Program-made: the position numbers
From: Escherichia coli
GTDB taxonomy: Bacteria > Pseudomonadota > Gammaproteobacteria > Enterobacterales > Enterobacteriaceae
Strand: one strand, 5' to 3'
Length of the DNA stretch: 64,000 nucleotides
NCBI RefSeq assembly: GCF_013315695.1
Contig: NZ_CP054353.1
Part shown: in pieces, positions 1 through 3,000 of the stretch
How the letters are laid out: the number at the start of each line of letters is the position of its first letter
Position numbering within the stretch: position 1 is the stretch's first letter

Positions 1-3000
1 TACCCTGTTTGTTTAATTATGTTGTACACCTCTTCAGGAGTATTCATAAAACAAGGCAAATGTAAAGAACTGTATTGTTTTGTATAACCACATGGTTACC
101 TAATCGCCAATTAATATAAGCTCCATTATTTCTCCATATTTTTATGTTAGAAGTGACAAGGAGAAATGTAATGTTTCTCTCAGAGAATATAAATCATTCC
201 TTTTGCACACCTTAATGGTGGGCTTTTTTATGCAAAACCTGAACGTCCTGTGGTATTACTCTGGCATAATGATTTTCGCGATTAACCAACAACCAGACCA
301 GCAAAGACGCCACCACAAGCACAGCAACATCCATCAGGCTTGCCACACCCCATATGTGCGGCTCAAAGCCGCCATGGCATATTAATCCGCTTGCCATTTT
401 CGAACAGCTGATTGGTTTAGTCCGGTGTTTCCCTGCTTGCACTTAAAAATGAGCGGATGGGAAACTCTCGAAATGGTTCGTCGATATGCTCACCTTTCAG
501 TCAGGCATTTCACCGCGCACGCGAGCAAAATCAAAGGCACAAGAGGAGAACGTAGTTTACTTAAATGTGAGATAACTTATTGATTTAAATGGTGCCGATA
601 AGAGGAGTAAAACACTCGATTAATCTCGTGTTAATGCCATCACCTACGACCATTACTAATTGATTGAATCTTATAGAAAAAATTATCATTTTCTATGCGT
701 TACAATCAATTTTCACATTACAAACGCTCCGACACTTTAGCCGGGGAGTTTATGAGATACAAGCCCAATCAATACATAATCTGTGATTCTTACGGTAACT
801 ACTATTTGAGGATCACGTTGCCTGTGTATATGCAGCCCTTTTTTGAAGGAAAAAGGACGTTTGTCAGAAGTCTGCACACAAGTAGTCTTCGTGTTGCACG
901 TAGAAAGCGTGATCAGATTGCAGATGAATACCATTGTCTACGGGAGAGTGTCGCCCCTGTAAACAGCACAATAGAGAACACGCTGGAACTGTTACGCAGT
1001 AAGGCTAAATACGCCAAAACAGCTACCAGAATGCAAGATACAGCGTCTTCGTGTCCGTCATTGCTTAAAATTCTTGAAATCTACCTGACAATTAACAGCA
1101 CGAAGAAGAAGCCAGCCACTTTAGCTAAGGCAAGAAAAGCGGTAGAGATGTTTCTCTCCTACCGTAAAAAGCCTGATATTGCATTGCAAGATGTAAGCCG
1201 CACCACTGTTACAGGCTGGATAGAACACATGCAAAAAACCCTTTCACAACAATCAATTGCAAATTATATCAGCCCAATGGCCCAGCTATGGGAGTTAGCT
1301 TCATCACGTTACCACGATGCGCCAGAAAGGGCGCTCTCCCCCTGGCGAGGGCATAGGCTTGATGTGGCACAAAGTAGAGAGAGCTACGAGGCATTTTCTA
1401 ACAAAGAGCTATTGCAGGTGTTGCAAGTATTTTCCGGTGATTCAGCAGAAAACAAAGAAATGATGGCTTTGTGTCTTATCGGTGCTTATACAGGTATGCG
1501 GATCAATGAGATAGCAAGTCTCACAATAGACGATGTGAAAGAGATCGAAGGTGTGCTGTGTTTTGAAATCACACAGGGAAAAACGAAAGCTGCGGCACGT
1601 CTTGTGCCTGTGCATAGCCTTATCACTCCGTTGGTGTTGTCGCTGCGTGAAAAGCCTCATAATGGCTTTTTGTTCTATCACGCCAGCATTACAGAGCGTG
1701 CTGATGGTAAACGTTCCACGTGGCACACGCAGAGATTTACAAGAGCTAAACGAAAGGCTTTAGGGGAAAAGGGAACAGAAAGGAAGGTGTTTCATTCTCT
1801 GAGACACGGAGTAGCACAGCTTCTTGATCGAAATCAAATTCCAGAAGACAGGATCGCCCTTCTCCTGGGCCATACACGCGGCAATACAGAGACATTCCGC
1901 ACATATAGCAAGAATGCAGCTTCTCCAGTAGAGCTTAAAAACTATATTGAGCTTCTACGCTACCCTGAAATAGAGAAAGGCTTATCAATCAATAAAAAAT
2001 CAAATTTAATGCGCAAAACAACGCCATAGACGCAATAAAGAGGCTTCAACATAGATTGGTAGCCTCTTTTATAATTACATCGTTACAGAGCGTTTTAGAG
2101 GCATTTACGGCTATTCCTGTTTAAAGGCAGGAGTAATAGTGTCTTCACCTTCACTACTTGATTTTTCAGTGTTAACACGTTTTTTCATATTCGCCCCGAT
2201 GTTCTTAGATGGCTGTGTTTTGATAGCTACAGTGTTTACAGTACCATAAGAAACTAATCTTATTTGTTCAAAGCTAAGATCAAATACCAGGGATTCGCTT
2301 GCCTCTTCTGTGTATTCGATGCCTGTTAAAACAACGTTCTCAAAAGTTTTATTTTCTGTAACAAGAAGAAAAGGCTGTCTACTGTCCATAATCTGATTCA
2401 AGTAGTCTATAGCTAATGATCTTCTGTTCCCGTTCACCCCTGCACTCTTTAACAAGCCAGGATCGCTTTTAATCGGTGTTTCAGTGATACGCCCTTTAAG
2501 AGAGAACTTATTGTTTTTAATTTGAACGTGATCAGACACAGTAGCACCATTTTCTACGGGGTAGCTTGTGACATCTGCCGAACGTCTCACGTTCACATCG
2601 TCAACACTATCAAAGGCCAGTGCCATATAATTTTCATAAACGTCATTACCAGAAGATGCCAAGCCACTGGTAACAATAGCAAATCCGTTCTCTCCTTTTG
2701 TTTTATTAGCTTTGCTATTTTCGTTTTTTGTAGAATTTATATCTTGTTCTGCTTTGTAAACAGCCTGAACGTGTTGTTCTGGAGTATTTGCTGCACGTAT
2801 GGTTAAAATCCCGGCGGTCGCCATAATAATAATTTTCCTTGTAATGTTATGGCGGGAATTCCCCGCCGTTGGATTGTCCTGATAAGCTGGTTAATGTTAA
2901 TGATTTCAAGAAGCTATCCCGACTTGCTCTCGCTGTAAAATCCACATAATCGCTCAATCGTCCGGTGTCTGATTCGATAGTTAGCGGCACTTCTGTTACC

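Follow-up and report, generated by a model that had tools for sequence, protein, structure and literature searches.

The 61-codon open reading frame (ORF) near the left edge of the analyzed DNA is, in all likelihood, the decayed and frameshifted tail of a phage membrane-protein gene, a pseudogene fragment belonging to an old prophage at thrW. The stretch analyzed here, referred to as the window, comprises 64,000 nucleotides of the E. coli chromosome from the yagU–thrW interval. The truncation of the gene stems from deletions inside this older prophage and not from the integration of the island now present in the window. The evidence includes homology of one part of the ORF to the 3′ third of the phage gene family phrog_1443, its abutment on the 3′ end of a thrW-specific integrase gene, the defects of the copy, the occurrence of the same scar in island-free strains, and the pattern of variation across E. 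coli genomes.

The reading frame and the thrW locus

The ORF is located on the minus strand at 212–397, running from an ATG at 397 to a TAA stop at 212–214, and its 61-aa protein (MASGLICHGGFEPHIWGVASLMDVAVLVVASLLVWLLVNRENHYARVIPQDVQVLHKKAHH) contains a single hydrophobic segment, as described in the first-pass annotation. The hydrophobic stretch spans residues 18–38, and the highest Kyte-Doolittle score over 19 residues was 2.50 (residues 20–38). The frame is annotated in RefSeq as a 'hypothetical protein', and its product is the G47V variant of WP_000146241.1, one residue apart from it. With a GTG at 442 as its start, the frame also stays open over a longer version of 76 aa. In the six frames of the window, 216 ORFs reach 61 aa or more vs. 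~153 in shuffled sequence; hence, the length of the ORF is by itself uninformative. A terminator-like hairpin of the intrinsic type followed by T6 is present on the plus strand at 205–229 and overlaps the stop codon of the ORF. Two stop codons lie in its loop, that of the minus-strand ORF and that of a plus-strand ORF of 14 codons (171–215). A207 weakens the hairpin in this window; C207 is present in most alleles.

The order of features is yagU, the ORF, an integrase pseudogene (421–575), a copy of the thrW 3′ end (590–608), and then the island genes, which include integrase, baseplate, IS2, and capsid genes to the right of 608. The window edge had been thought to prevent resolution of the ORF; its 5′ side in fact faces the window interior, and the left edge lies 211 nt past the stop codon. 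Leftward extension, proposed earlier as a check on whether a longer gene ends in the ORF, reaches the start codon of the minus-strand yagU gene immediately left of position 1, and the ORF is part of no host gene. The core yagU upstream region occupies 1–158 (92% identity with K-12) and is followed by a segment at 159–278 that separates it from the phrog_1443 homology; in K-12, the paoABCD-yagP genes are found at the same place, where the window has 159–535. Among the ~1,299 E. coli genomes carrying the 159–278 segment, no occurrence of it was found outside this locus, the phage collection gave no match to it, and in an exact-word scan of viral contigs, the same locus was the sole match. The H195 sequence represents the same locus with a small deletion. 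The segment may be residual DNA of the phage cargo region.

The thrW gene between proA and yagU is a known hotspot of integration, as exemplified by GI-thrW of ST131 (PMC4134206), and the PICI EcCIMP1 uses the att core TCCTATTATC (PMC11773190). In the window, the plus-strand copy of the thrW 3′ end at 590–608 (TGGTGCCGATAAGAGGAGT, one mismatch) constitutes the att core and separates the old scar from the island, which takes up the remainder of the window. Island-free strains possess the same 1–608, followed directly by intact thrW and proA. The ORF is therefore part of the conserved flank and not of the island, which neither created it nor caused its truncation. The comparison with island-free strains had been suggested in the first-pass annotation together with the proposal that island integration disrupted a gene here; as the relic is identical in those strains, the comparison contradicts that proposal.

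Relics of a phrog_1443 gene and of a thrW-specific integrase

A sensitive DNA search showed that 279–406 is ~82% identical to genes annotated as 'hypothetical protein' elsewhere in E. coli genomes, and the identity to full-length family genes (L003, L004, and L005 among them) and to phage genes ranged from 80 to 82%. The full-length relatives consist of 95–97 codons on the same strand; in every case they come last, preceded by a prophage tail-fibre gene and a 92-codon gene. At the protein level, hmmscan matched residues 7–40 of the ORF to positions 63–96 of the 97-position phrog_1443 profile (E 8.8e-8), a significant match, and matched the short version of the family, phrog_34165, at E 2.4e-14. 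Of the ORF, only the minus-strand stretch 279–406 is inherited coding sequence; it represents codons ~55–96 of 97 in phrog_1443 genes, their 3′ third, and holds the third transmembrane helix. A full-length relative ends in …FGHGKRINMPWWGGFDPRAWDVASLMDFAVPVVACLLVWLLVNRG*, to which the ORF counterpart is MASGLICHGGFEPHIWGVASLMDVAVLVVASLLVWLLVNRENHY…, and residues 9–40 of the ORF equal the third helix of the phrog_1443/phrog_34165 family and the short loop preceding it (GGF.P..W..ASLMD…LLVWLLVNR). In view of the two profile matches and the DNA identity, the hydrophobic helix is not a product of chance. The earlier suggestion of a tail of a disrupted host membrane gene is thus borne out in that the ORF derives from the 3′ end of a longer membrane-protein gene; that gene came from a phage and not from the host.

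Unlike the intact members of phrog_1443, the relic retains only the last third of the gene and has a new start, no ancestral stop, and replacements at near-invariant residues. The homology stops at 406; the first ~55 codons, i.e., the 5′ two-thirds, are gone. Just downstream of ATG397, between 368 and 369, 5 bp are deleted that intact family genes and the allele of strains RS571, WP4, IMT16316, and MS6198 still have, and the frame is shifted. What was GKRINMPW in the ancestral frame is now read, out of frame, as the annotated ATG and the first eight residues, MASGLICH. The ancestral stop (…NRG*) has been lost at ~279, where intact genes have …AATCGTGGGTGA and the window has …AATCGCGAAAAT. Translation of the frame past the lost stop reads through 21 codons of unrelated DNA at 212–278 on the minus strand (…ENHYARVIPQDVQVLHKKAHH*), a tail without homology to any member of the family. 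This ENHYA… tail was absent from all 120 family representatives, which always end 0–8 residues past the third helix, unlike the ORF. The conserved core pattern of the family, AREHTQAEYRWI…G.GKR.NMPWWGGFD.R.WD..S..D…P…C, is not preserved in the ORF, in which, of the most conserved parts, AREHTQAEYRWI is deleted and GKRxNMPWW is read out of frame. Among the ten near-invariant residues that the ORF still covers, four are replaced (D68E, R70H, P83L, and C87S). Full-length members have three helices in 95–100 aa; the ORF has the third helix only.

The sequence to the right belongs to an integrase gene. The plus-strand stretch 406–587 corresponds to the last 64 codons of an integrase of the thrW-specific lambdoid type (HK75 Int residues 323–386 by tblastn). 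In contrast to HK75-type integrases, the relic keeps these residues only, split over three frames and interrupted by an in-frame stop. The stretch 406–608 is ~77% identical to the int 3′ end (last ~180 bp) and attP of HK75, mEpX2, HK542, mEp213, mEp043, HK446, and SfX, the records of which state integration at thrW/ptwF. The int and phrog_1443 homologies meet at ~404–407, and the integrase relic, read in the direction of the tRNA-derived att core, borders on it with its 3′ end. From ~495 onward, the int allele found in other strains is very unlike that of the window.

The arrangement of the two relics agrees with that of the ends of an integrated prophage. In the orientation of the window, phage ev207 has the gene order xis-int(+)-attP-cargo-phrog_1443(−)-phrog_1361(−)-stf(−)-J(−), and once an ev207-type phage has integrated at attP, int is situated at one end of the prophage and the phrog_1443 gene, the last conserved late gene, near the other, with the 3′ ends of both outward. 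Both relics in the window are oriented exactly as expected for such opposite ends, and the orientation of the phrog_1443 relic relative to the att site is that of a family member in an integrated prophage. In an IMG/VR contig (L026), a lambda-like prophage occupies this att site and comes after the relic and the thrW core; its phrog_1443 gene is ~3.4 kb from the att site in the orientation of the relic, with stf and J beyond it. A second copy of the thrW core was not detected left of 279, the only copy in the window being that at 590–608, and convincing direct repeats flanking the scar were likewise absent. The left att copy was presumably lost together with paoABCD-yagP. With no left att copy found and 159–278 unmatched elsewhere, the reconstruction is incomplete on that side. 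A search for a full-length integrase and prophage at thrW showing both ends yielded only further decayed remnants in E400634 and in an O157 strain.

The same hotspot in K-12, i.e., the CP4-6/ptwF junction, also lies at thrW between proA and yagU and contains a remnant of the same type of integrase, the last ~12 codons of which are retained beside ptwF (a partial thrW copy) between yagP and intF. It differs in having no phrog_1443 fragment and in still possessing paoABCD-yagP; the scar in the window is longer than the K-12 junction and yields an annotated ORF. Because K-12 keeps only the last ~12 int codons next to ptwF, different lineages appear to hold differently eroded versions of one old prophage.

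We infer the order of events at the scar as follows. An HK75/lambda-like prophage would once have integrated in the thrW tRNA gene, and one internal deletion would then have removed nearly the whole of it and fused the 3′ third of phrog_1443 (279–406, minus strand) with the 3′ sixth of int (406–587, plus strand). A later deletion of 5 bp (368/369) would have put a chance ATG in frame with the surviving helix, and with the stop codon lost, translation would continue through unrelated DNA for another 21 codons. The yagU upstream sequence was probably brought to its present abutment on the scar at 158/159 by an additional rearrangement. Gene finders would then call the 61-codon frame because it is open and hydrophobic.

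Sequence variation, expression signals, and alternative readings

The segment was found in ~1,297 of 5,426 complete genomes, comprising ~1,200 with the 5-bp deletion and ~95 without it, and 76% of E. coli genomes lack the ORF. In the 5-bp-intact haplotype (RS571, WP4, IMT16316, and MS6198), the ancestral frame is continuous, ATG397 is out of frame, and PGAP annotates no gene. The products called at the locus across strains measure 38, 45, 57, 61, 76, 79, 80, 95, and 97 aa. Eleven alleles of the deleted type showed 10 polymorphic sites with 11 changes in the ORF, of which 10 were nonsynonymous, including one nonsense change, vs. one synonymous; six of the 10 polymorphic sites fell at codon position 2. 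The nonsense allele, present in many strains, converts AGA at 260–262 to TGA (T262A on the plus strand) and gives a 45-aa product, and the 45-aa and 61-aa forms each occur on at least 1000 contigs. Other common variants are E12K, A15V/I, M22K, and S31C/Y. The binomial probability of at least 10 nonsynonymous changes among 11 is 0.26 under neutrality and 0.003 at an omega of 0.25, the intact phrog_1443 family genes having pN/pS values of 0.15–0.38. The 10:1 ratio fits neutrality and not a family-like constraint; purifying selection acts on the intact members and not on the ORF.

Two observations on this variation count against a relic. The frame is open (45–61 codons) and PGAP-annotated in most of the ~1,200 5-bp-deleted genomes. 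The density of substitutions between the two haplotypes is ~13% in 245–374 vs. ~0.6% in the flanks, a clustering that plain neutral decay leaves unexplained and that could hint at recombination or selection.

A Shine-Dalgarno or AGGAG-like motif was found neither in the 25 nt before ATG397 (GACTAAACCAATCAGCTGTTCGAAA) nor before GTG442. No promoter-like site was present on the minus strand at 400–680, i.e., within 280 nt upstream of the ORF; the only such site upstream of it, at 709–682, lies inside the later island. On the plus strand, no promoter-like site for an antisense RNA over the ORF was detected. A Pfam search at E up to 1 gave only two chance-level matches to the ORF (DUF2149 and SIT) and no toxin family, PADLOC and NCBIfam returned no match, and Rfam returned none on 1–760. 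The literature, searched by accession, family id, and peptide string, contained no mention of the protein. The ORF most likely makes no functional product, and we infer from these signals that it is not expressed.

It is improbable that the relic has been exapted as a new single-pass membrane protein of 45–61 aa, its start made by the 5-bp deletion, that is expressed in B2-type E. coli. Such a protein would accord with a frame that is annotated in ~1,200 of 5,426 genomes, with the retention of one strongly hydrophobic helix, and with nonsynonymous changes that are in excess and clustered, and bona fide small proteins of E. coli are often membrane peptides with a single helix. The 10:1 count and the common nonsense allele nevertheless fit neutrality, and the frame lacks both a Shine-Dalgarno motif and a nearby promoter-like site. 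Its start and stop positions vary among strains, the 5-bp-intact haplotype is unannotated and without this start, and the majority of E. coli genomes and the literature are devoid of it. Quite improbable, too, is a gene born from the pseudogene as a young, lineage-specific membrane peptide of 45–61 aa translated in B2-type E. coli, with the changes in the helix area being due to diversifying selection or repeated recombination. A toxin-like peptide, also envisaged in the first-pass annotation, would in its fuller form be a type I toxin-like membrane peptide controlled by a convergent antisense RNA ending at the 205–229 terminator. The ORF resembles Hok/Gef, Ldr, Ibs, TisB, and ShoB in size (45–61 aa) and in its single hydrophobic helix, the plus-strand terminator hairpin does overlap its stop codon, and the neighborhoods of prophage scars often house type I toxin modules. 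Against this, the search at E up to 1 matched the ORF to none of the toxin families, Hok/Gef, Ldr, and Ibs included; unlike these toxins, it lacks signals for transcription and translation, and neither an antisense RNA gene nor a promoter-like site for either transcript was found. Moreover, its variation looks neutral, with the nonsense variant and many missense variants being common and purifying selection absent, and its origin as a fragment of a larger, ordinary three-helix protein is demonstrable. A toxin is hence very improbable.

Two further readings have next to no probability, each being already refuted. The resemblance of the ORF to the tail of a longer membrane protein and its position at an island boundary would be expected if it were the 3′ end of a host membrane gene interrupted by integration of the island in the window. 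The identical relic beside intact thrW in island-free strains refutes this; in addition, 200 nt and the integrase relic separate the ORF from the island boundary at 608, the full-length relatives are phage genes, and K-12, with paoABCD-yagP at this place, has no trace of such a gene. The ORF was also considered as an antisense shadow of the integrase pseudogene that PGAP annotates next door, as plus-strand frame 2 reads …HQACHT…, a superficial likeness to the HDLRHT box. This candidate was dropped, since the integrase homology begins only at ~406–412, in both DNA and protein; the plus-frame translation gave no Pfam integrase match, and 279–406 is homologous instead to minus-strand phrog_1443 genes.

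Annotation of the relic and its parent family

With the ORF regarded as a decayed phage-gene tail, the proteins WP_000146236, WP_000146239, WP_000146240, and WP_000146241, which are called in approximately one in four complete E. coli genomes, are best viewed as a single phage-gene pseudogene fragment. The finding of the ORF as such is ordinary and carries little weight for biology and some for annotation. The locus would offer a clean, small example of a whole lambdoid prophage shrunk to ~330 bp, namely its two extreme ends, and of the thrW hotspot, where successive elements stack beside the scar.

The parent family, being widespread, confidently folded, and uncharacterized, is a more rewarding target than the relic. 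At least 571 clusters of phrog_1443, all unnamed, are present in Escherichia, Shigella, Salmonella, Enterobacter, Leclercia, Aeromonas, and Comamonas. Its members, such as WP_000355360.1, WP_000355700.1, and VUF53415.1 (phage ev207), are membrane proteins of ~97 aa that follow the side-tail-fibre gene and the 92-aa phrog_1361 gene in lambda-like phages and prophages. Searches of the PDB by sequence or fold revealed no solved relative, and Pfam, NCBIfam, and PADLOC searches for a function of the family were all negative. Judged by gene position only, a role linked to tail fibres or to the exclusion of related phages might be guessed. The AlphaFold (AF2) model of phrog_1443 showed three helices at 4–23, 26–53, and 74–96 with a pLDDT of 94. 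One Comamonas member is placed after gpJ in a prophage, but one Aeromonas member is located among ordinary chromosomal genes.

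Divergence between scar haplotypes

The differences between the 5-bp-deleted and the 5-bp-intact haplotypes, i.e., strains without and with 5 bp at 368/369 of the phrog_1443 relic, were found to be concentrated in a patch at 245–374. Within this patch, 15 substitutions and the 5-bp indel separated the two haplotypes (about 13%), as against about 0.6% in the remainder of 1–608. The patch extends into DNA beyond the paralogue homology, and hence gene conversion by the copies in ordinary prophages is not a full explanation for it. A search for a donor of the patch did not find one. 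The integrase relic was also observed to be a mosaic between strains, with the switch at about 495 (495–587). The segment from 406 to 495 is common to the strains. Beyond about 495, the int 3′ end of ST131, ATCC 25922, and related strains is very different and contains a 29-bp insertion. This mosaic suggests recombination with the int of thrW elements that arrived later.

Small ORF with a terminator-like hairpin and the phage gene pair

The segment at 171–229 contains, on the plus strand, an ORF of 14 codons encoding the peptide MFLSENINHSFCTP, with a strong Shine–Dalgarno sequence (AAGGAG) 7 nt ahead of its ATG. The stop codon of this ORF lies inside the loop of an intrinsic-terminator-like hairpin, which is followed by T6. 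Most strains carry C207, giving a perfect stem (−15.2 kcal/mol, z −3.1); with A207, as present in the window, the stem is weaker (−8.1). K-12 lacks this segment, and a search of it against Rfam gave no match. It may be what remains of a lost convergent phage cargo gene, namely its 3′ end with the terminator.

The genes phrog_1361 and phrog_1443 form a conserved module closing the tail-fibre region of lambda-like phages (intact copies at L003, L004, L005, L011, and L012; see also L029 and L030). The product of phrog_1361 is an acidic, soluble protein of 92 aa, and that of phrog_1443 (97 aa; at least 571 protein clusters) is predicted by structural modeling to comprise three helices (pLDDT 94). 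Relatives of the module were not found in Pfam, NCBIfam, PADLOC, or PDB. An Aeromonas homologue is located in a chromosomal, non-phage context.

Organization of the thrW hotspot

Strains with the window-type scar (159–535, compared with K-12, L008) lack paoABCD and yagP, which in K-12, O157, and E400634 separate yagU from the thrW-proximal int relic. The yagU-side breakpoint is sharp, at 158/159. The wreckage at the hotspot varies by lineage. In E. coli E400634 (L009), a 203-bp int relic comes after an AbiE toxin–antitoxin pair, a hypothetical gene of 3.2 kb, and an HTH gene. In O157 strain 350 (L010), the int fragment measures 921 bp and is accompanied by IS1203, tail-fibre assembly genes, and pinE, after which comes a P4-like element.

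Within the window, thrW-like sequence is limited to a core of 19 nt (590–608), and ARAGORN detected no tRNA gene in the window; hence, the element(s) inserted at thrW (590–64000) reach past its 64 kb. Their first gene encodes a tyrosine recombinase (752–2029, 1278 bp), and one gene is interrupted by an IS2 insertion (about 3846–5119). A phage baseplate gene and a capsid gene are also present.
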